Counted from the first letter of the stretch, positions 2-57,016 are shown. The stretch is DNA of 58,661 bases from Candidatus Omnitrophota bacterium (GCA_041653035.1 JBAZGE010000003.1:1-58661); one strand, 5' to 3'. Numbers and translations are program-made. The notes: generated from the letters alone by a model not told the origin.

Positions 2-130
2 ATAACCGACCACCGCATTAATTTTACGCTGTATAAGATGGAAGCGGTCCTGGAAGGAGATCTGGACGAGTTGTCCGATGCTTTGATCAAAGCGAGCGAA
101 GCGGCGGAGAAAAATGTTAAAGAAGGTTAA
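2..130 (+). CDS. prfA: peptide chain release factor 1, C-terminal fragment (5' part lies outside the window)
   Basis: Frame-2 translation [42 protein letters not shown] resembles the conserved RF1 C-terminus. It is followed by prmC, the usual prfA-prmC arrangement. Confidence 0.75.
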
Positions 131-157
131 AGTTAGGTTAATGATTGTTAAAGGCAG

Positions 158-4058: not shown

Positions 4059-4847
4059 ATGGCTCACGACGCTTTAAAAGAGATAATCGCCAAAAAGCGG
4101 GAGCGGGTCCTGCAGGCGAAACAGCAGCTGCCGGAGGCGGAACTGCAGGCGCGGATCAGGGATATTCCTCCGTCCCGCCGTTTTATCGAGTCGGTGGTCA
4201 AACCGAAATCGTTGACTTTGATCGCCGAGATAAAGAAGGCGTCTCCTTCTCAGGGAATCATCCGTGAGAATTTCGATCCCGTTGCCATCGCCGGGACCTA
4301 TCAGGAAGCCGGGGCCTCTGCGCTTTCCGTGCTCACCGAAGAGGATTTTTTTCAGGGGAGCCTTTCGTTCATTCCTATGGTCAAAGCAGCAGTAACCCTG
4401 CCGGTTTTAAGAAAAGATTTTATCGTGGAGCCGTATCAGGTGTATGAAGCCAGGTATTTTCAGGCAGATGCGGTGTTGCTTATTGCCGATCTTCTATCTA
4501 AAGACAAACTTATAGAGTTAATACATGTCGCCGAAGAGCTGGGGCTTGATTGTTTAGTTGAGGTTCATACCGAAAAAGAACTTAAAAAGGCCGTCGGGCT
4601 TAAGGGGCCGGTGCTTATCGGTATCAATAACCGGGATCTGCACAGCCTGGCGGTTGATTTTAAGACCACCGAGCGGCTCTTCCCGTTGATCCCCAAGGAA
4701 AAAACGGTGGTCGTGGAAAGCGGGATACGCACGTATCAGGATATCCTGTTCCTTAAAATACTGGGAGCGAGCAGCGTTCTGATCGGCCAGGCGTTCATGA
4801 GTTCTCCGGATATCAAGGCCAGCGTTCAGGAAGTGATGGGGTGGTAG
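4059..4847 (+). CDS. trpC: indole-3-glycerol phosphate synthase
   Basis: 262 aa TIM-barrel with IAEIKKASPSQG and LRKDFI motifs typical of IGPS. Confidence 0.95.
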   Translation: MAHDALKEIIAKKRERVLQAKQQLPEAELQARIRDIPPSRRFIESVVKPKSLTLIAEIKKASPSQGIIRENFDPVAIAGTYQEAGASALSVLTEEDFFQGSLSFIPMVKAAVTLPVLRKDFIVEPYQVYEARYFQADAVLLIADLLSKDKLIELIHVAEELGLDCLVEVHTEKELKKAVGLKGPVLIGINNRDLHSLAVDFKTTERLFPLIPKEKTVVVESGIRTYQDILFLKILGASSVLIGQAFMSSPDIKASVQEVMGW

Positions 4848-33258: not shown

Positions 33259-34932
33259 ATGAGAAAAGTATTGTTTCTTTTCTTGATAGGAATGTTTCTT
33301 ACTGGTGTGTATGTCTGTTCTTACGCGTCGCAGGTCACCGTTGATTCGAGAATCTCGCAGGTGATGCTTTATGCCGATTCCGTGTTGATCACCAGGACCG
33401 CGGAGGTTTCCCTGGATGCCGGAGAATTTAATCTTGTTTTTCCCGATATCATTCCCGAAGTGGACGAAAATTCCTTGAAGGTTACGGCATCGGGGGAAGC
33501 CGGGTTTAAATTGTTCGGAGCGCAGGTAAAAAAAGAGTTCCTGGAAGAAACTCCTTCGGCGAGAATAAAAGAAATACAGGCTCAGATTCGTTCTTTGAAT
33601 GATGAAAACAGGCAGTTTGAGGATCAGCGAAAGCTGCTCTTCGAGGAAAAAGCATTTCTCGACTCCATCCGGTTATTCTCGGGCGGGCAGATACCTAAAG
33701 ATTTGGTGACTAAAGTTCCCACGCCCCAGGAACTGGAGGGAACTCTGGGGTTTCTTGACGCGAAGCTGCGGTCCCATTATTCCGCGGTCATGGATTGCGA
33801 GTTGAAGATGAGGGCACTGGCTGAGAAGATCGATGTTTTGGAACGGGAATTGGCGCAGATATCCGGGCCGGTGGATAAAATAAAACGGTCGATCATCGTG
33901 GACGCGCAGGTGAACAAGGGCGGGAAGTTCTCTATAAACGTGGCGTATCTGGTCAGGGGAGGCGCGGAATGGCAGCCGTTGTATGACGCGCGCGCGTCTT
34001 TTGAGAAGAACGAAGTAGAACTTGTTTCTTACGGCGTGGTACGTCAATTTACGGGAGAAGACTGGAATGACGTGGAAATGTCCCTGTCGACCGCGAAACC
34101 TTCGATTGGCGGGAATATTCCGTATATTTCTCCTTGGGTCTTGAAGCCGTTCCAGCCGCGTATGTTTTCCCGGGATAAAATGGCTTCCATGCCCATGGCG
34201 GCCAGGATGCAGAACCAGGCTCTTGAGATGAAAGACGAGGCGGTAACCGGCGCCGCGGCTCCGGAAGAAGCCGCGTATGCCGACGCCCAGGAACGGGGTA
34301 TATCCGTGGTTTATAAACTCCCGCGGAAAGTAAGCGTTAAATCCGACGGTTCGGAATATAAACTTCCGGTGTCGAACCAGGTTTTGAAAGCGAATTTCGA
34401 ATACGCGGCCTACCCGCGGATAAGCCCGTTCGCCTATCTCGGTTCGCGGGTAACCAACAGCAAGGAATTGCAGCTCCTGGCCGGGAAGGTGAATATATTC
34501 CTCGATGGTGATTTTGTCGGCGCTTCGAATATCAATAATATCAGCCCGGGGGAAGAATTCGATTTGTACCTGGGCGCGGATGAAAATGTAAAGATTAAGA
34601 GGGAGATTATCGAAAAGAAATCCGACGAGACCCTGTTCGCGAACATCCCGTCTCCGGTAAAACAAATAGCCTTTAAATATAAACTGAGCGCGGAAAATTA
34701 TAAATCGCGCAGGATCAGAGTGAAGTTGTTTGACGCTGTTCCGGTTTCCGAAGAGGACCGTATCAAAGTAAAGATAAACCAGGTAAGCCTTGAGCCTAAG
34801 GAAAAAGACTGGAAGGATAGAAAAGGCATCTGGTTGTGGGAATTGGAACTGGAGCCAAAAGCGAAGCAGGAAATATTCCTGAATTTCACGATTTCTCATC
34901 CGAGAGAAATGCAGGTGGAGGGGCTGGAGTAG
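33259..34932 (+). CDS. secreted DUF4139/DUF4140 protein (MuiA-like, function unknown)
   Basis: Signal-peptide-like MRKVLFLFLIGMFLTGVYVCSYA, then the VTVDSRISQVMLYADSVLITRTAEV..G.N.LVF pattern typical of this family. The ORF-track N-terminus translates a repeat arm. Confidence 0.75.
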   Translation: MRKVLFLFLIGMFLTGVYVCSYASQVTVDSRISQVMLYADSVLITRTAEVSLDAGEFNLVFPDIIPEVDENSLKVTASGEAGFKLFGAQVKKEFLEETPSARIKEIQAQIRSLNDENRQFEDQRKLLFEEKAFLDSIRLFSGGQIPKDLVTKVPTPQELEGTLGFLDAKLRSHYSAVMDCELKMRALAEKIDVLERELAQISGPVDKIKRSIIVDAQVNKGGKFSINVAYLVRGGAEWQPLYDARASFEKNEVELVSYGVVRQFTGEDWNDVEMSLSTAKPSIGGNIPYISPWVLKPFQPRMFSRDKMASMPMAARMQNQALEMKDEAVTGAAAPEEAAYADAQERGISVVYKLPRKVSVKSDGSEYKLPVSNQVLKANFEYAAYPRISPFAYLGSRVTNSKELQLLAGKVNIFLDGDFVGASNINNISPGEEFDLYLGADENVKIKREIIEKKSDETLFANIPSPVKQIAFKYKLSAENYKSRRIRVKLFDAVPVSEEDRIKVKINQVSLEPKEKDWKDRKGIWLWELELEPKAKQEIFLNFTISHPREMQVEGLE

Positions 34933-34957
34933 GAAAAAAGGTTGTTGTTTTCTTTTG

Positions 34958-34975
34958 TCATTAACCGCCATTAAC
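34958..34975. repeat. two-unit TTAACC fragment (10-nt period) upstream of pfkA
   Basis: CATTAACCGCCATTAACC, same flavour and spacing as the right arms at 52266-52312 and 55734-55759. Confidence 0.6.
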
Positions 34976-34985
34976 CTTATCGACG

Positions 34986-35951
34986 ATGAAGATCAAGCGA
35001 ATAGGAGTTCTTACTTCGGGCGGCGATGCGCCGGGCATGAACGCGGCGATCCGCGCGGTTGTCCGCTCCGCGCTCTTTAATAAAGTGGAAGTCATGGGGA
35101 TTTATCGCGGCTACGAAGGGCTTATCCAGGAGGATATAAAACTTTTGGATCATCGTTCTGTTTCCAATATTATCAATCGCGGCGGTACCATTCTAAAGAC
35201 TGCCCGTTCCGAGAAGTTCCTGAAGCGTGAAGGGCAAAAACGGGCGGTGGAAAACTTAAAGAGGAATAAGATCGACGCCGTGGTTGTGATAGGCGGGGAC
35301 GGCACGTACCGGGGCGGGATTGCTTTGAGCGAACGGTGGCATATTCCCTGTATCGGCGTGCCGGGAACCATAGATAACGATGTGTACGGTACCGATTCCA
35401 CCATTGGTTCCGATACCGCGGTCAATACGGCGGTTGAGGCAATCGATAAGATACGGGATACCGCGACCTCCATGGAACGGGTTTTCGTGGTCGAGGTCAT
35501 GGGAAGGGACAGCGGATATATCGCTTTGCAGGTGGCGGTGAGCGGCGGCGCGGAGGAAGTATTGCTCCCGGAACAGAAGTTCAGCATGTATGATATGTGC
35601 CATGCTATCGTGGAGGGGAATCTGCGGGGCAAGATCAGCTGGATCATTATTACCGCTGAAGGCCGGGCAAAGGCGGCGGATGTAGCGCGCCGGATCAACG
35701 AGATGACCACGCTGGAGACCAGAGAAGTGGTCCTGGGGCATGTACAGCGGGGAGGCAGTCCCACGGCACGGGACAGGATCCTTGCTTCGCTTTTCGGAGC
35801 GGCCGCGGTTGATCTTTTGTTGAAAGGGAAAAGCGGCAAAGCCGTGGGGATCATTTCCGACAAGATCAATATCGTCGATCTGAAGGATGCGGTGAAAAAA
35901 ACGAAACTGCAGGCGGGCAGTCTTTATAAATTGATAAAGATACTCACGTAA
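34986..35951 (+). CDS. pfkA: ATP-dependent 6-phosphofructokinase
   Basis: IGVLTSGGDAPGMNAAIRAVVR, GGDGTYRG and PGTIDND motifs. Confidence 0.95.
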   Translation: MKIKRIGVLTSGGDAPGMNAAIRAVVRSALFNKVEVMGIYRGYEGLIQEDIKLLDHRSVSNIINRGGTILKTARSEKFLKREGQKRAVENLKRNKIDAVVVIGGDGTYRGGIALSERWHIPCIGVPGTIDNDVYGTDSTIGSDTAVNTAVEAIDKIRDTATSMERVFVVEVMGRDSGYIALQVAVSGGAEEVLLPEQKFSMYDMCHAIVEGNLRGKISWIIITAEGRAKAADVARRINEMTTLETREVVLGHVQRGGSPTARDRILASLFGAAAVDLLLKGKSGKAVGIISDKINIVDLKDAVKKTKLQAGSLYKLIKILT

Positions 35952-50049: not shown

Positions 50050-52140
50050 ATGAATGAAAGTAAAATCAGAAAAATTACGTTTGGAAAAGAAGAATTCGTT
50101 TTTGAAACCGGCAGGATGGCGAAGCAGGCGAATGGTTCGGTTTTAGTTCAGTACGGCGGGACGGTTGTGCTGGTGACCGCCTGTGTGTCCCGGGAACCGC
50201 GGAGCGGTATAGATTTTTTTCCGTTGACGGTGGAATATCAGGAGAAAACGTATGCCGCGGGAAAGATTCCCGGCGGTTTTTTTAAGCGGGAAGGAAGGCC
50301 GACTGAGAGTGAGATCCTCACTTCGCGGCTTATTGACCGGCCTATCCGTCCGCTGTTTCCCAAGGGGATGTATAATGACGTGCAGATCATTGCGATCGTT
50401 GTTTCCAGCGACGGGGCGAACGATCCGGATGTCTTGGCGGTAAATGGCGCGTCTCTTGCTTTGTGCATGTCCGATATTCCTTTTAACGGGCCTGTGGCTT
50501 GCTGCCGGGTGGGAAGAGTGGAAGGGGAATTTATTCTGAATCCCACCTACGCGGAACTTGAGATTTCCGAAATTGATGTCGTGGTTGTTTTGAACGCCAA
50601 CGGCGTGGTGATGATCGAATGTAAAGCAAAAGAAGTATCCGAAGAGCTGTTCATAGAAGCGGTTCAATTCGGGGTCGATCAGGGGCAGGCGCTTCTGCGC
50701 TTTCAGAATGATTTCGCGAAGGAATTAGGCAAAGAAAAGATGCAGATTGCTTTGAAGGTGATTGATCCCGTTCTGGAAAAGAAAGTCGAGGAATTAGCCG
50801 GCGGGAAGCTCCGGGATATTTATAAATTATCCAAGAAAGATGATCGGGAAGAAGGAGTGGCGTTATTGTCTAAAGAACTTGCCGCTACCTTGGTTCCTGA
50901 AGGATACATTGAAACCGACGTGAAAATGGCCCTGGTGGATGTGGAGCAAGAACAGGTGCGGAATAAAATCCTTCATGAGAAAATTCGCATTGACGGCAGG
51001 GGATTTAAGGATATACGTCCGATAACCTGCGAAGTCTCGGTTTTGCCCAGGACGCACGGTTCCGCGCTTTTTACCCGCGGACAAACACAGAGCCTTGCGG
51101 TTACCACTTTGGGTACCGGCCAGGATGAACAGCTTATCGAGGGGTTGGAAGAGGAACGGTACAAATCGTTTATGCTGCATTACAGTTTCCCTCCGTTTAG
51201 TGTAGGGGAGACCAAACCCGTACGAGGCCCCGGCAGGAGAGAAATAGGCCATGGAGCTCTCGCGGAACGCGCCCTTTTGGCTGTTATTCCTTCAAAAGAT
51301 CAATTTCCGTATACCGTCAGGGTTGTGTCCGAGGTGTTGGAATCGAACGGGTCTTCAAGCATGGCGACCGTGTGCGCGGCGACATTGTCTTTGATGGACG
51401 CGGGCGTTCCCATTAAGGATTCGGTTGCCGGCGTAGCGATGGGATTGATCAAGGAAGGAGATACCGCTCTCATCTTGACCGATATTTCCGGCCTTGAGGA
51501 TCATTTTGGCGACATGGATTTTAAAGTCGCGGGTACAAAGAACGGTGTTAATGCCGTGCAGCTTGACCTGAAGATCGACGGGATTAGCGTGGAACTGTTG
51601 AAAAACTGTACTTTGCAGGCTAAAGAAGCGCGGTTTACCATATTGGATAAGATACGGCAGGCGTTACCGGCGCCGCGGCAGGAGTTATCCGTGCACGCGC
51701 CGCGCATAGAAAAACTGAAGATTCCTACCGATAAGATAGGAGAAGTCATCGGGCCCGGAGGTAAGAATATCAAGAAGATCATTGCCCAGACCGGCTGCGC
51801 CATCGATATTGAAGACGACGGGACTGTTCTTATTTCTTCGAGTGATTCCGCGAAATCCGCCGAAGCTATCGGTATGATCAAGGCTATCACCGATGAAGTG
51901 GAAATCGGCAAGATATATGCCGCTAAAGTAAAACGAATAGTTAATTTTGGAGCGTTTTGCGAGATCGCGCCCGGGAAAGAGGGCTTGGTGCATGTGTCTG
52001 AATTGTCCGATAAGTTCGTTAAAGACGTGGCTTCCGTGATCAAGATCGGCGATGAGATCAAGGTTAAGGTGGTCGGGATCGATGAGCTGGGTAGAATTAA
52101 CTTGAGTAAGAAGAAGGCTGAGGAACAGGAAAAAGGTTAA
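50050..52140 (+). CDS. pnp: polyribonucleotide nucleotidyltransferase (PNPase)
   Basis: 696 aa. Two RNase PH-like domains followed by KH (IGEVIGPGGKNIKKI) and S1 (GLVHVSEL) domains. Canonical rpsO-pnp pair. Confidence 0.95.
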   Translation: MNESKIRKITFGKEEFVFETGRMAKQANGSVLVQYGGTVVLVTACVSREPRSGIDFFPLTVEYQEKTYAAGKIPGGFFKREGRPTESEILTSRLIDRPIRPLFPKGMYNDVQIIAIVVSSDGANDPDVLAVNGASLALCMSDIPFNGPVACCRVGRVEGEFILNPTYAELEISEIDVVVVLNANGVVMIECKAKEVSEELFIEAVQFGVDQGQALLRFQNDFAKELGKEKMQIALKVIDPVLEKKVEELAGGKLRDIYKLSKKDDREEGVALLSKELAATLVPEGYIETDVKMALVDVEQEQVRNKILHEKIRIDGRGFKDIRPITCEVSVLPRTHGSALFTRGQTQSLAVTTLGTGQDEQLIEGLEEERYKSFMLHYSFPPFSVGETKPVRGPGRREIGHGALAERALLAVIPSKDQFPYTVRVVSEVLESNGSSSMATVCAATLSLMDAGVPIKDSVAGVAMGLIKEGDTALILTDISGLEDHFGDMDFKVAGTKNGVNAVQLDLKIDGISVELLKNCTLQAKEARFTILDKIRQALPAPRQELSVHAPRIEKLKIPTDKIGEVIGPGGKNIKKIIAQTGCAIDIEDDGTVLISSSDSAKSAEAIGMIKAITDEVEIGKIYAAKVKRIVNFGAFCEIAPGKEGLVHVSELSDKFVKDVASVIKIGDEIKVKVVGIDELGRINLSKKKAEEQEKG

Positions 52141-52312
52141 TGAAGGTTAAAGGAAGTTAAAGATGGTTAATGATGGTTAAAAGCAAATTCGTCTGAGACG
52201 ATGCTGCTGAAGTAAATATTAAAAAAATGTTCATTATAGGTTTATTATTTTAACAGGCATTTTTTTAACTTTCTTTAACCGCATTTAACCGTCTTTAACC
52301 AGCATTAACCTG
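52141..52312. repeat. inverted arrays of GGTTAA units with an exact 10-nt period (pnp-ftsK spacer)
   Basis: GTTAA at 52146, 52156, 52166, 52176. TTAAC at 52266, 52276, 52286, 52296, 52306. An AT-rich spacer of about 75 nt lies between the arrays. Confidence 0.9.
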
Positions 52313-52334
52313 ATTTTTTTACCCCTCCACGACT

Positions 52335-54551
52335 GTGAAAGAGAAAAGACTCAATGAGATCGAAGGGATTGTATTAATCGCGGCTGGCCTGATTATTTTA
52401 GCCAGCCTGGTTTCTTTTGATCCCAATGATATCAGCTGGCACACCTTTCCTCCTAATAATCCCCCGCATAATCTGGTACGGACCTTCGGCGCAAATCTGG
52501 CCGGAGTTCTGGTTTTTTTGTTCGGAAGGTTCTCCAGTTTGATCATTCCTTGTTATGTTCTCTGGGCGGGAGTCAGGTTGTTCCGGCATGAGCCGCCCTA
52601 TTGGAGCATTCCCCGTATCATAGGCCTGGTCGTTTTGATCTTATCCGCCAGTTCTCTCATAGGTTTGTTTTATTTACAAAAGGAGACTCCCGGTATTTAT
52701 GCGGGCGGTGGATTGGGATTTATTGTTTCCAAATTCGTTGCCGCTTATTTTGGAAAATTCGGGGGTTATGTGCTTTTTATTTCCCTCTTTTTGTTATCTT
52801 TGGCGATCGTAACTGAGGTGCTTATTTCCACGATCTTCGCCCGGGGAATTAAATTTTTGAAACAGGGGGGTGTATGGTTCACGGATTTCGGGTGGTTTAA
52901 ATTCAATAAGAAAAAAGCGCGCCGTCAATTCTCCCCGCAAGGGGGACGCGCCGTTCCGGAAGAAAAAGCCGCACGGGAAGAACGTGCCCGTCCGCGGGTT
53001 TCAGTTTCCGACGAACCTCTTCAAAAAGCTCCTGCGGAAAAATTCGCTTTCTTCAAGCCGAAAATTAAAATAGGCAAGGAATCCATTGAATCTTCCAAAC
53101 CCAAAGAGAAAGCCCCGGTGGTTAAAAAAGGCGATTATCATCTGCCTTCTTTGGATCTTTTGGCATCGCCGCCGCCTATGGAATCGCGGCAGATCAAAGA
53201 GGATCTTGCCGGCAATGCCCGCGTCCTGGAAGAGACTATGGACGATTTCGGCATTTCCGTTAAAGTTACCGATATAGAACGCGGCCCTATCATTACGCGG
53301 TATGAACTCGAACCTGCTCCGGGCGTTAAGTTGAACCGGATCGTGGCCCTGGGTGATGATATCGCGCTGGCTATGAAAGCGCAGTCGGTGCGTATCGAGG
53401 CCCCTATTCCCGGGAAAGCCCGGGTCGGGATCGAGGTCCCTAATTCGCACAGCAGTATCGTTTATCTGAAAGAGGTCCTTTCTTCCCCTGAATTCCAGAA
53501 TTCCGATTCAAAACTTCCTCTGGCGCTCGGAAAAGATATCTCCGGGAAATCGGTGATCTCGGACTTGACGCAGATGCCGCACATCTTGATCGCCGGCACA
53601 ACCGGTTCCGGGAAAACGGTGTGCGTGAATTCGCTTATTTTATCCCTGCTTTTCAAGGCCACTCCCGCGGAATTAAAAATGGTTATGGTCGATCCGAAGA
53701 TGGTGGAATTGGCGCCGTTTAACGGTTTGCCTCATCTTATGTGTCCCGTGGTGACTGATTCTAAAAAGGCGGCATTCGCCCTTAACTGGGTGGTTGAAGA
53801 GATGGAGCGCCGTTATCGCCTGTTAGCGGATGCCGGCTCCCGTAATATAGAAGCGTATAACCAGAAGAATGACCTCCTTCCGTATATCATTTTGATCATA
53901 GACGAGTTTGCCGACTTGATGGTTGTCGCCCGGGAACAGATCGAAAGCGCTATTACCCGCCTGGCACAGCTTTCCCGTGCCGTGGGAATACATTTGATAC
54001 TGGCGACCCAGCGGCCGTCCGTCGATGTCATTACCGGCGTCATAAAGGCGAATCTTCCCGCTCGTGTTTCTTTCAAGGTTGCCTCGAAGGTCGATTCCCG
54101 CACCGTGTTGGACATGAACGGCGCGGATAAACTTTTGGGAAGGGGCGATATGCTTTTCCTCAGGCCGCAGGACGCGAAGTTGGTACGGGCGCAGGGTGCC
54201 TTGGTAGGTGACGAGGAAATAGAGAAAGTCGTGGCTTTTGTTAAGGCGCAGGGAGAGCCGGTATATAACGAAGAGATACTGAAAGAGGGCCGTAAGACCG
54301 GTTCGGTCGACGGAGGCGAAAAGGACGAGATGTATGAAGAAGCGGTGCGCATAGTTATCGAGACCAATCAGGCTTCGGTGTCCATCCTGCAAAGGCGTTT
54401 GCGCCTGGGGTATACCCGTGCCGCGCGAATAATCGACATGATGGAACAGGATGGGCTGGTAGGCCCGTTTGAGGGCAGTAAAGCCCGCAAGCTCCTGGTC
54501 GACCGGAACGCATGGCTTGAACAGGATATGGCCAAGCGAGCGTCCGGTTAA
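52335..54551 (+). CDS. ftsK: DNA translocase FtsK/SpoIIIE
   Basis: N-terminal membrane helices, linker, Walker A GTTGSGKTV, Walker B IILIIDEFADL, and a C-terminal gamma winged-helix (SILQRRLRLGYTRAARIID). GTG start. Confidence 0.93.
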   Translation: MKEKRLNEIEGIVLIAAGLIILASLVSFDPNDISWHTFPPNNPPHNLVRTFGANLAGVLVFLFGRFSSLIIPCYVLWAGVRLFRHEPPYWSIPRIIGLVVLILSASSLIGLFYLQKETPGIYAGGGLGFIVSKFVAAYFGKFGGYVLFISLFLLSLAIVTEVLISTIFARGIKFLKQGGVWFTDFGWFKFNKKKARRQFSPQGGRAVPEEKAAREERARPRVSVSDEPLQKAPAEKFAFFKPKIKIGKESIESSKPKEKAPVVKKGDYHLPSLDLLASPPPMESRQIKEDLAGNARVLEETMDDFGISVKVTDIERGPIITRYELEPAPGVKLNRIVALGDDIALAMKAQSVRIEAPIPGKARVGIEVPNSHSSIVYLKEVLSSPEFQNSDSKLPLALGKDISGKSVISDLTQMPHILIAGTTGSGKTVCVNSLILSLLFKATPAELKMVMVDPKMVELAPFNGLPHLMCPVVTDSKKAAFALNWVVEEMERRYRLLADAGSRNIEAYNQKNDLLPYIILIIDEFADLMVVAREQIESAITRLAQLSRAVGIHLILATQRPSVDVITGVIKANLPARVSFKVASKVDSRTVLDMNGADKLLGRGDMLFLRPQDAKLVRAQGALVGDEEIEKVVAFVKAQGEPVYNEEILKEGRKTGSVDGGEKDEMYEEAVRIVIETNQASVSILQRRLRLGYTRAARIIDMMEQDGLVGPFEGSKARKLLVDRNAWLEQDMAKRASG

Positions 54552-54556
54552 TGAGC

Positions 54557-54763
54557 GTCTGCTGAAAAAGCCTCATCTGCGTTGTTGCGCAGAAAGCGCA
54601 CACCGGCCTTACCAATTAGGCCGGGTGCTGCGCGCCGCGTTCCTTTGTGCGGCGTATATGGTACATACGCCTGCGCAGAAGCGCGTACCAAACCGTCCTT
54701 ATAGGTTTGGGTGCTCCGCAGTCACTTGGCGCGCGCCTATCATCTGAGGCTTTTTGAGCAGAC
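54557..54763. mobile_element. second palindromic repeat family, long copy (D1)
   Basis: TIRs GTCTGCTGAAAAAGCCTCATCTGCG ... CATCTGAGGCTTTTTGAGCAGAC. The core is shared with D2, plus two extra internal hairpin modules. Confidence 0.75.
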
Positions 54764-54824
54764 TTCCTGAAATGGTTATTTTAACAAACTGTTGTATGTA
54801 CTCTTTAGAGCGGATGGGAGTAAT

Positions 54825-55640
54825 ATGGAATCAGTAGGCGCAAAACTCAAAAAGATCCGTCTTGAAAAAGGCATAAGTATCGAGGAAGTTCAGAAAAAAA
54901 CAAAGATCCATCCCAATATACTCAAGGCCATAGAAGAGGATAATTTCATTAATCTGAGCCCCGTGTACGTGAAGGGGTTCTTGAAAATATATTGTAAGTT
55001 TTTAGGTGTCGATTATTCCCAATACATTCTGGAATACTCGGAATTGGAAAAAAAACCTTCGGAATATGCTCCTGTTCAATCCCGATCCACATCCGTAAAA
55101 CTGTCTTCCGGCAGTTTTTCCCGGATCGTCAATATGCTGGTTAAGGCTGCGATATTCGTTGTTTTGATTTTTTTGGTTGCCGGCACGGGTATCTTTGTCT
55201 TTCGTAAAATTTCAGCGTTTATCAGGAATCAAAATAAAATCTCCTCAGCCGCCAGGAAAAATATGAGCAAACCCGGTTCAGGTAAGCCGTTAAAAAGGTC
55301 TTCAAAGGCGGTTAAACCCTCCGCTCCTGTTGAAAAACGGGCGTCCGCGGCGGTTCCACTGGTGAAAAAGATCAAGACAGGGACGCCTATCCGGCTGGGC
55401 ATACGCGCGAAAGAAGACTGTTGGATAAAATTGAGCCTTGACGGTAAAGTGATCTTCCAGAGTATCATCAGAAAAGGCAGATCGGAGAACTGGCAGGCGA
55501 AAAAAGAGATCGCTCTTTCCCTGGGGAACGCGGGTGGAGTTGACCTGGAAGTAAACGGGAGTTTGATCCCCTCGGTGGGCAGAAAAGGCCAGGCGGTCAA
55601 GAGTATCGTGATAAACGAGGACGGGTTGAAAGTGAATTAG
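54825..55640 (+). CDS. rodZ: RodZ-like cytoskeleton protein (XRE HTH, single TM helix, DUF4115)
   Basis: VGAKLKKIRLEKGISIEEVQKKTKIHPNILKAIEEDNF HTH, a central TM helix and a C-terminal beta-rich domain. ATG 54825 after GGGAG. Confidence 0.8.
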   Translation: MESVGAKLKKIRLEKGISIEEVQKKTKIHPNILKAIEEDNFINLSPVYVKGFLKIYCKFLGVDYSQYILEYSELEKKPSEYAPVQSRSTSVKLSSGSFSRIVNMLVKAAIFVVLIFLVAGTGIFVFRKISAFIRNQNKISSAARKNMSKPGSGKPLKRSSKAVKPSAPVEKRASAAVPLVKKIKTGTPIRLGIRAKEDCWIKLSLDGKVIFQSIIRKGRSENWQAKKEIALSLGNAGGVDLEVNGSLIPSVGRKGQAVKSIVINEDGLKVN

Positions 55641-55759
55641 AGAAATGGTTAATGAAAGTTAAAGAGGGTTAAAAGAAAAAACATATGGTTTTTTCGTAAC
55701 TACCTTCAACCGGTAGTGTCGACTTCATTTTCATTAACCGATTTTAACCGTCATTAACC
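55641..55759. repeat. inverted arrays of GGTTAA units with a 10-nt period (rodZ-rimO spacer)
   Basis: GTTAA at 55648, 55658, 55668. TTAACC at 55734, 55744, 55754. The right array abuts the rimO ATG. Confidence 0.9.
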
Positions 55760-57016
55760 ATGAAACATATTAAGCCAGCGATCGGCATTGTCAGCCTCGG
55801 GTGCCCCCGGAATCTGGTTGATTCGGAGAGTATTCTGGGGCGGCTGCGGCATAAAGGATACCGGGTCTCTGATATCGATAAGGCGGATGTTGCCTTGGTG
55901 AATACGTGCGCGTTCATCCAGGATTCCAAACGGGAATCTATCGACGCCATCCTTGATGTCATCGCGCTGAAAAAAGAAGGAAAGCTTAAAAAAATAATTG
56001 TGTGCGGGTGTCTCTCTCAGCGGTACAAGGACCAATTGTTGAAAGAGTTCCCTGAAATAGACGCCTTCGTAGGGACGCTTTCTCTTAATCATACGTCCCG
56101 CCGGTTTCCTCTGACGCCGGGGTATTACGCTTATCTGAAGATCTGCGAGGGGTGCGTGAATAATTGCAGTTACTGCGTCATTCCCCGCCTCAAACGAAAG
56201 TTTGAAAGCATAAGAATGGATGAAGTTTTTCAAAAGGCCGCAGGACTTGACCGGGGAAAAATATCCGAGCTTAACATTATCGGGCAGGATATTACCGGTT
56301 ATGGGATGGATCTGCGCGGGAATGCCCGTCTTGAGGTTTTATTGCGTAAGATTCTTGCGGCGGTAAAGCACGCCGGCTGGATACGTTTGTTGTATCTTTA
56401 TCCCAACCGGATTACCGATGAGCTGCTTTCGATCATCCGGGATGAACCGCGGATATGTAAATATATCGATCTTCCCCTACAGCATATCAGCGACAGGATT
56501 CTGAGAAAAATGAACAGAAAAACCACAAAAAAACAGGTTCTTTCTCTTGTCGACAGAATTAGGAAGAATATCCCGGGCGCGGCTTTGCGCACTTCTCTCA
56601 TCACGGGATTTCCTTCGGAAACAGACCGGGAGTTTAAAGAAATGCTGGCGTTTATGGAGGATGTGCGCTTCGAGCGCCTGGGCGCTTTTATGTATTCCCG
56701 GGAAGAAGGGACACGGGCGTATTCTTTTACGGGACAGATCCCCCGGAAAACAAAAATTGAGCGTTTTAACCGGATCATGGGTTTACAGCAATCTATTTCC
56801 GTGGAAGTAAACAAGAATATGATGGGAAAGACGATCAAGGCGCTGGTTGAGGAAAAAGAGGAAGGCCATTATGTGGGGCGCAGCCAGTATGATGCCCCGG
56901 AAGTAGACGGCCAGGTGTATATACATTCGAGCAAAGAGTTGAAACCCGGAGATTTTGTTTCGGTTGAGATCATTGATACGCTTGAATATGATCTCGTGGG
57001 GAGGGCCATTCCGTGA
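55760..57016 (+). CDS. rimO: ribosomal protein S12 methylthiotransferase RimO (radical SAM MTTase)
   Basis: SLGCPRNLVDSE N-terminus, radical-SAM CVNNCSYC and a TRAM C-terminus. No Shine-Dalgarno; the repeat arm abuts the ATG. Confidence 0.88.
   Translation: MKHIKPAIGIVSLGCPRNLVDSESILGRLRHKGYRVSDIDKADVALVNTCAFIQDSKRESIDAILDVIALKKEGKLKKIIVCGCLSQRYKDQLLKEFPEIDAFVGTLSLNHTSRRFPLTPGYYAYLKICEGCVNNCSYCVIPRLKRKFESIRMDEVFQKAAGLDRGKISELNIIGQDITGYGMDLRGNARLEVLLRKILAAVKHAGWIRLLYLYPNRITDELLSIIRDEPRICKYIDLPLQHISDRILRKMNRKTTKKQVLSLVDRIRKNIPGAALRTSLITGFPSETDREFKEMLAFMEDVRFERLGAFMYSREEGTRAYSFTGQIPRKTKIERFNRIMGLQQSISVEVNKNMMGKTIKALVEEKEEGHYVGRSQYDAPEVDGQVYIHSSKELKPGDFVSVEIIDTLEYDLVGRAIP

Follow-up and report, generated by a model that had tools for sequence, protein, structure and literature searches.

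Spacers that hold a short tandem-repeat array followed by its inverted partner were described in 2009 at the latest and are still unexplained, and the GGTTAA family described here is a genus-specific addition to them. It came to light in a 58,661-nt stretch of DNA from a Candidatus Omnitrophota bacterium (GCA_041653035.1 JBAZGE010000003.1:1-58661), called the window below, which is contig C3 of a draft assembly of 2.03 Mb in 127 contigs (G000); here arrays of 10-nt GGTTAA units occupy the spacers between pnp and ftsK and between rodZ and rimO. On balance, and with moderate confidence, we read these arrays as the arms of genus-specific, gene-less fold-back insertions that resemble the intervening sequences (IVS) of rRNA, fill stop-start spacers, and would act in the mRNA if they act at all. 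The comparison genome throughout was G001, the sole congener of G000; the wider comparison sets consisted of 23 other genera of the family and of 400 further Omnitrophota genomes, and loci fetched from other genomes or metagenomes carry L labels.

Classes 1 to 3 of Geobacter metallireducens consist of three to five tandem units of 7 to 9 nt (GTTGCTYN, TCTCCGTS[Y], and MTYCTGA) matched by a second array that reads on the other strand and lies a varying distance away, and their authors suggested, as a guess, that they bind IHF/HU or a global regulator (Aklujkar et al. 2009, PMC2700814). The GGTTAA elements have the same plan of a tandem array and an opposite-strand array around a variable, unconserved center. 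They likewise occur in tens of intergenic copies, some of them inside operons (proB-proA in Geobacter), and have a narrow range, restricted to one genus here and to one species in Geobacter, where the sister species holds other sequence in the spacer. They differ in their 10-nt units, compared with 7 to 9 nt in Geobacter, for which no PF05635 link or selection analysis was reported.

The IVS of Coxiella 23S rRNA has terminal inverted repeats that form a 28-bp stem, carries an S23p open reading frame (ORF) in its loop, and is excised by RNase III (PMC4990558). As in the IVS of Coxiella and Leptospira (PMC4990558), the elements described here would be selfish inserts in a transcribed essential region whose terminal inverted repeats are predicted to form a long stem, and the IVS layout with a small four-helix-bundle ORF in the loop is matched exactly by sister flavors of the repeat in G000. 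Unlike IVS, the GGTTAA copies lie in mRNA spacers between protein genes, lack an ORF, have arms built of tandem arrays, and belong to a lineage in which RNase III, the enzyme that excises IVS, is not detectable. Our best reading by analogy is that they may be gene-less members of an IVS-like class, comparable to empty IVS or to derivatives resembling miniature inverted-repeat transposable elements (MITEs).

Iterons and type II or Ib centromeres (parC of plasmid R1, the omega heptads of pSM19035) are single loci beside rep or par genes and are bound by an adjacently encoded protein. GGTTAA arrays share with them contiguous short repeats of fixed period, which can fall into two blocks and run in either orientation, but are scattered over operon spacers at about 18 loci, none of which has a rep/par-type neighbor. 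A repetitive extragenic palindromic (REP) unit is a single palindrome of 20 to 40 bp with a GTAG or CGTC head. Like the REP/BIME and REPIN-RAYT systems of proteobacteria (described in part in PMC3733652), the GGTTAA elements are dispersed, lineage-specific extragenic palindromes, often between genes that are probably co-transcribed, with predicted mRNA hairpins; unlike REP, their arms are 10-mer arrays without a GTAG or CGTC head. A RAYT/REPtron origin was considered and rejected, as none of the six Y1_Tnp genes in G000 is flanked by tandem arrays. Cyanobacterial STRR heptamers and the TAACTGA repeats of Beggiatoaceae (PMC4679880) resemble the GGTTAA units in a period that is no multiple of three and in a stop triplet inside the unit, and TAACTGA repeats are also intergenic and end a few nucleotides ahead of starts that often lack a Shine-Dalgarno sequence; however, they form 169 direct sets against 1 inverted set with a single unit across phyla (PMC4679880), whereas the arrays here are paired, inverted, and genus specific.

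Insertions into the pnp-ftsK-rodZ-rimO operon

The repeat unit reads GGTTAAWGNN: positions 1 to 6 and 8 are conserved (GGTTAA.G), position 7 is A or T, and positions 9 and 10 vary around an A-rich consensus. The pattern GTTAA-N5-GTTAA-N5-GTTAA has 8 matches in the window against 0.00 expected from 100 dinucleotide-preserving shuffles, and successive GTTAA (or TTAAC) words in the whole genome lie 10 nt apart in 61 pairs, with 10 pairs each at 9 and 11 nt, so that an earlier note on this DNA, made from the sequence alone, is borne out in proposing a repeat family whose units keep strictly to about 10 nt. After pnp, GTTAA starts at 52136, 52146, 52156, 52166, and 52176; the earlier note had the exact 10-nt phase and the last four starts right and missed the first of these five units, which holds the pnp stop codon TAA (52138-52140). 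The five inverted units that follow were correctly counted and were placed one position too high, at 52266 to 52306; TTAAC starts at 52265, 52275, 52285, 52295, and 52305. After rodZ the units stand as claimed (GTTAA at 55648, 55658, and 55668; TTAAC at 55734, 55744, and 55754; 3+3), and the two-unit fragment ahead of pfkA is real, with TTAAC starting at 34961 and 34971 instead of 34960 and 34970.

Comparing these spacers among relatives shows that the elements are insertions into an ancestrally tight operon and places their gain on the stem of the genus. The gene order pnp-ftsK-rodZ-rimO is kept in nine other genera, in which the pnp-ftsK and rodZ-rimO spacers measure 0 to 39 nt or the genes overlap, while in G000 and G001 the same spacers measure 194 and 189 nt (pnp-ftsK) and 119 and 159 nt (rodZ-rimO), respectively, and are occupied by arrays; it is this contrast that gives the elements their status as insertions. 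The three-unit pattern, in turn, has 27 matches in G000, 22 in G001, none in the 23 other genera of the family, and two single matches in the 400 further genomes of the phylum.

About 18 array loci are spread over 11 contigs of G000, some 12 of them paired, and a typical locus has a forward arm of 2 to 5 units, a center of 17 to 102 nt, and an inverted arm. The outermost units are almost always GGTTAATG ... CATTAACC, and the innermost tend toward a GC-richer GGTTGC paired with GCAACC or GTAACC beside the loop, as they also do in unrelated genomes. Centers are unrelated across loci save for embedded repeat units and are similar only between orthologues (that of the pnp-ftsK element aligns to the orthologous G001 copy and to no center of another locus); therefore, the elements are not classical MITEs with a conserved core. 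Arms usually begin 0 to 10 nt past the upstream stop and end 0 to 32 nt ahead of the downstream start, and a Shine-Dalgarno sequence is lacking from about half of the genes that follow, among them ftsK, which starts with GTG at 52335. The flanking genes encode PNPase, FtsK, RodZ, a RimO/MiaB-type methylthiotransferase, PrmC, PfkA, isocitrate/isopropylmalate dehydrogenases, Asd, EtfB/EtfA, HisF, HisH, HisB, Mdh, ClpP, CysS, KdtA, and others, and the gene pairs that frame loci include leuB/icd-asd, etfB-etfA, hisH-hisB, and icd-mdh.

Eight loci are common to G000 and G001 and are orthologous unit by unit, with unit counts that differ, such as 3+3 against 5+1+3. An element present on contig C22 of G001 corresponds to a 12-nt stop-start spacer in G000 (C35), and another stop-start spacer holds an 8-nt GTGTGTAA-flavor hairpin in G000 (C5:8591-8754) where G001 has GGTTAA arms (G001:C125; L028:8567-8690). 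Deletion has removed an arm from two copies in G000 (C7:22159 and window 115-155); the latter, a fourth locus of the window that the earlier note missed, has lost its center and most of its 3' arm, to judge from the orthologous G001 spacer, which holds both arms. The remnant ahead of pfkA lies between a TAG stop at 34930 and the pfkA ATG at 34986. These comparisons show a family in turnover, as read from presence and absence, arm loss, and replacement by another flavor within the same spacer. Variable unit number, arm loss, and such turnover would also be left behind by purely selfish or neutral palindromic DNA that plays no part in RNA or in protein binding, evolves by slippage and gene conversion, and whose core conservation reflects concerted evolution, and so would the lineage-specific distribution and the mild clustering of loci (5 pairs within 12 kb versus 1.24 expected, P = 0.012).

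The conservation of individual positions makes this neutral explanation unlikely in our view. Between G000 and G001, with units identified in either genome and scored in its counterpart, identity is 92 to 100% at core positions 1 to 6, 86 to 88% at positions 7 and 8, 78 to 80% at positions 9 and 10, 83% in alignable centers, and 73% at 4-fold degenerate sites of four flanking genes; alignment somewhat favors matching cores, and the gap between cores and neutral sites is nonetheless large. Conversion should homogenize positions 7, 9, and 10 as well, yet adjacent units differ there, so that simple homogenization does not explain the pattern. Unit-by-unit orthology also counts against the neutral explanation, as do the C28 and C86 elements, which are about 96 to 97% identical between the species while their flanking genes are 83 to 89% identical. 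On these identities the core is under purifying selection, which would fit a constrained stem and would fit a sequence-specific binding site too.

Several observations concern neighboring or similar repeats. The ftsK-rodZ spacer of the window (54552-54791, 240 nt) holds a different long palindrome, TGAGCGTCTGCTGAAAAAGCCTCA ... TGAGGCTTTTTGAGCAGAC, which is missing in G001, where the spacer is 23 nt; this spacer is 0 to 4 nt in most other genera and 67 nt in one, and in yet another genus (L016, G014:C29, locus 4331-4546) it contains GATTACA/GATTAAA 10-nt units followed by inverted GTAATC units. Within the GGTTAA 3' arm on contig C86 of G000 (1756-2050) sits an element of about 117 nt with terminal inverted repeats CCCCGTTAGAG...CTCTAACGGGG and TTTAC duplicated on both sides, missing from the G001 orthologue; by its ends and this duplication, the nested insert is a true MITE with a target-site duplication. 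A scan of a genome collection for four GGTTAA cores at 10-nt spacing returned more than 118 loci in many phyla, a figure obtained with no control core and therefore open to chance recurrence. Two of the fetched loci, L062 and L150, from metagenome-assembled genomes (MAGs) labeled Brocadiaceae and Bacteroidota, agree in their arrays, which are of the GGTTAAYAAC type, and almost fully in the tails of their PF05635 genes, and this likeness across different assigned phyla points to a binning error or a recent transfer. The metagenome scan was dominated by one sample, in which dozens of Ga0126342_* contigs (L177-L256) contain minisatellites, long and perfect runs of (GGTTAATGAT)n or (GGTTAATGTT)n, that have no relation to the paired elements and probably stem from a single organism rich in repeats; viral contigs gave one match, which is unpaired.

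Sister repeat flavors and PF05635 cassettes

GGTTAA is one flavor among many. Tandem Repeats Finder detects numerous short arrays in G000 with periods of 7, 8, and 10 nt, and at least six other flavors have units of 7 to 8 nt (units include CGTAATT, AGTTGTC, AAGTGCAT, AGTGTGTA, GTTCGTGT, and GGTTAAAGAA); dozens of these sister arrays stand within stop-start spacers with an inverted copy of themselves behind them. In the compositionally skewed flavors (AGTGTGTA, GTTCGTGT, AGTTGTC, TCGTTAGTT, and AGTGCATA) the G/T-rich arm comes 5' and the A/C-rich arm 3', on either strand, the lone exception (C8:9) being a neighboring element cut by the contig end.

Some of these sister flavors still carry a gene. 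In about 2 Mb, G000 has nine genes for PF05635, the 23S rRNA intervening-sequence protein, a four-helix bundle (Table 1), and six of the nine sit between the two inverted arms of an array pair whose unit flavor is particular to that gene; among these flavors are AGTTGTC, GTTCGTGT, and AGTGTGTA, three of the large flavors that are otherwise gene-less. Two or three further PF05635 genes lie directly downstream of a complete array hairpin, and tRNA genes adjoin three of the framed genes, on both sides in two cases and downstream in the third. Outside the genus, loci fetched by the GGTTAA pattern contain five PF05635-like ORFs within 400 nt of arrays: in L115, a Bacteroidales MAG, the gene is framed by 5+5 GGTTAA-core 10-nt units, and in L062 it stands beside GGTTAA-type arrays. 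Because sister flavors still carry a PF05635 gene, the empty hairpins can be tied to IVS-like cassettes.

The same facts could be taken further. If the units were per-subunit sites for an oligomeric PF05635 (Avd/S23p-like) protein bound to an arm of RNA or single-stranded DNA, either unfolded or folded, this protein would mediate maintenance or spread of the cassette, and GGTTAA would be the flavor of a paralogue that has been lost or not assembled. Such a role, which we regard as very doubtful, would suit the nine genes, most of them framed by their own flavor, the arms of L115, and arm lengths of three to five units both here and in Geobacter next to the reported homopentamer of S23p (PMC4990558); it fits poorly with unit counts that range from 2 to 10, with the report that the Coxiella S23p ORF is probably not expressed (PMC4990558), and with our finding no GGTTAA-armed PF05635 gene in G000 or among two G001 copies examined. 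We give little credence to the fullest version by analogy, in which each PF05635 paralogue would match its own unit flavor and wrap the single-stranded or folded arm as TRAP wraps GAG repeats, a match that would drive the upkeep or spread of a widespread and so far unrecognized class of IVS-like cassettes in rRNA, tRNA-operon, and mRNA spacers. Were binding by PF05635 proteins true, the phased binding platform of the earlier note would be right in kind and wrong in molecule and purpose.

Whether IVS-type excision could take place in this host bears on the preferred reading of the elements as gene-less IVS-like insertions, and cleavage by RNase III is what one would first expect to befall such hairpins. 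The RNase III profiles PF14622 and PF00636 had no match in G000 and ten relatives (G001-G006 and G025-G028; seven at least 90% complete), while the same searches detected the enzyme in 8 of 14 control genomes, including E. coli and B. subtilis, and no RNase III signature motif (ERLEFLGD-type) was seen in six frames of G000. If real, this absence argues against excision of the IVS type, and the hairpins would stay in the mRNA, which fits either a role in looping out and coupling or mere tolerance.

A separate repeat, AAAAAAAGGGGACGGTTCTATTTTT...AAAAATAGAACCGTCCCCTTTTTTTT, is found in G000 at C24:2149-2219, C38:63-150, C63:9374-9464, and C29:14969-15082, partly in convergent spacers, and looks like a bidirectional intrinsic terminator.

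Table 1. Positions of the GGTTAA elements of the window and of the PF05635 genes of G000
Feature	Position	Strand	Remarks
pnp-ftsK element, 5' arm	52135..52184	+	5 units, GGTTAATGAA GGTTAAAGGA AGTTAAAGAT GGTTAATGAT GGTTAAAAGC
pnp-ftsK element, center (loop region)	52185..52260	+	76 nt
pnp-ftsK element, 3' arm	52261..52310	+	5 inverted units, the last CATTAACC, then TGATTTTTTT
rodZ-rimO element, 5' arm	55647..55676	+	3 units; 6 nt past rodZ stop TAG (55638-55640)
rodZ-rimO element, center	55677..55729	+	two small local hairpins
rodZ-rimO element, 3' arm	55730..55759	+	3 inverted units; final base touches rimO ATG (55760)
pfkA remnant	34940..34976	+	degenerate 5' unit GGTTG (34940-34944) and two 3' units CATTAACC (34959-34966, 34969-34976)
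Single 5' arm upstream of prmC	115..155	+	four units
PF05635 gene	C50:3694-4011		
PF05635 gene	C25:319-636		
PF05635 gene	C6:17651-17965		
PF05635 gene	C29:11876-12190		
PF05635 gene	C2:80372-80683		
PF05635 gene	C1:57093-57410		
PF05635 gene	C17:14325-14639		
PF05635 gene	C22:27696-27983		
PF05635 gene	C15:29231-29470		

Predicted folding and the level of action

The pnp-ftsK and rodZ-rimO elements have predicted minimum free energies of -58.5 and -38.7 kcal/mol (z = -5.2 and -4.9), and their predicted hairpins consist of 6- to 9-bp helices interrupted by 2x2 loops, much as the earlier note had anticipated in expecting a hairpin between the arms with periodic internal loops. At the predicted base of the rodZ-rimO stem, the first two bases of the rimO AUG (A and U) pair with a site 5 nt past the rodZ stop. 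When 20 paired elements are oriented by their flanking genes, the sense strand gives the more stable fold every time, with 105 G:U pairs against 45 for the antisense strand; G/(G+C) on the sense strand at variable positions is about 0.75 in both arms, compared with 0.52 at 4-fold sites and 0.56 in spacers; and about 17 of 20 copies have AA ahead of the 5' arm, compared with about 5 of 20 that have TT behind the 3' arm.

These observations lead us to propose that the element would be transcribed as part of the operon mRNA, that its arms may pair into a long hairpin of 6- to 8-bp helices split by 2x2 loops, and that this hairpin could loop the insert out and hold the upstream stop near the downstream start. 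With the rimO AUG paired 5 nt from the rodZ stop, translation of downstream genes that lack a Shine-Dalgarno sequence could stay coupled to that of the upstream gene. The elements themselves do not resemble other regulatory structures that were considered: a promoter and terminator scan found no terminator-like site at them, with counts at shuffle level and no GC-rich stem followed by a U-tract, and an Rfam scan of 51900-56000 returned only chance-level miRNA matches (E of at least 0.07). Integron attC sites were rejected by inspection, since attC has the order RYYYAAC...GTTRRRY while GTTAA comes first and TTAAC second here, and the units misfit GTTRRRY.

The alternative put forward in the earlier note places the action on DNA, with a sequence-specific protein on each GGTTAA core along one face of the duplex, serving nucleoid or chromosome organization or regulation. 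The 10-nt period in 61 of 81 adjacent pairs is what such a phased platform would look like, a conserved core with drifting positions 7, 9, and 10 resembles the weight matrix of a binding site, and the Geobacter authors proposed IHF/HU or global-regulator binding for analogous arrays (PMC2700814). Helical-face phasing, however, belongs to the unit length of this flavor and not to the class, as sister flavors of the same architecture have periods of 7 and 8 nt, and DNA binding would require a separate specific binder in one genome for each of at least seven flavors. The spacer that holds different flavors in the two congeners also counts against it. The strand asymmetries are unexpected under duplex binding, and the units hold no A-tracts of 4 or more by sequence inspection, so that strong intrinsic curvature is not expected either. 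We therefore consider a DNA-level platform clearly improbable.

Its link to ftsK fares no better. GC skew is positive over the entire window (+0.10 to +0.18) with no switch, and so gives no ori/ter-type signal near ftsK. The genome-wide count of 10-nt arrays that the earlier note had suggested yields dispersed loci with housekeeping-gene neighbors, always within stop-start spacers, and the other 14 or so adjoin unrelated, metabolic genes; the comparison of orthologous spacers, also suggested there, finds the arrays missing outside the genus, with pnp-ftsK-rodZ-rimO tightly packed. A chromosome-organizing, ftsK-linked DNA platform is not supported.

Set against our reading of the arrays as mRNA-level fold-back insertions are the following points, along with the missing GGTTAA-armed PF05635 gene. 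Ordinary co-directional spacers also fold better in sense in 71% of cases, and with all flavors pooled the sense fold is the more stable in 22 and the antisense fold in 19, so that the RNA-strand signal is specific to the GGTTAA flavor; moreover, at each of 16 loci the strand richer in G is also the sense strand, which makes strand-specific mutation a confounder. All loci lie between co-directional genes, a placement that weighs little because 85% of adjacent gene pairs in the genome are co-directional. Positions 7, 9, and 10 do not covary in register from one arm to the other; position 7 matches from arm to arm in 32% of cases against 41% when permuted, with registers uncertain as degenerate units break the chains, and transitions in degenerate units that keep or break G:U pairing number 3 events in all, too few to be informative. 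The case for pairing thus depends on the core common to both arms, and a protein that binds a specific sequence would account for that core as well; the solo array at C5:26694, whose cores are all intact in both genomes although it has no second arm, likewise speaks for the DNA platform. As to insertion, one filled and empty pair (G001:C22 and G000:C35) shows no clear target-site duplication, no shared flanking repeat was seen at 20 loci, and neither a mobility enzyme for the elements nor a parent insertion sequence with a transposase was identified. The sequencing runs in which the organism was found are DNA metagenomes only, two metatranscriptomes sharing just 5% of words, and among DNA contigs only those of the source sample and one identical short contig corresponded to it. 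Taking both sides together, we consider action in RNA more likely than action on DNA, short of having shown it.

Implications for the lineage and for repeat-filled spacers

What the present family adds to the paired arrays already described is the comparison with a tight operon, the selection on the core, the link to PF05635 cassettes within the same genome, and the apparent lack of RNase III. An essential operon that is tight in nine genera and split by 120- to 190-nt inserts in one genus offers a clean case of before and after. For annotation, such spacers account for contig breaks, for genes that lack a Shine-Dalgarno site, and for odd calls of start codons in MAGs of this kind.

A lineage without detectable RNase III is, moreover, a natural setting in which to learn whether a cell tolerates long hairpins between cistrons, or puts them to work, when they are not cleaved. 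An Omnitrophota family that lacks RNase III would be unusual, and this bears on how its members handle long hairpins in their mRNAs.

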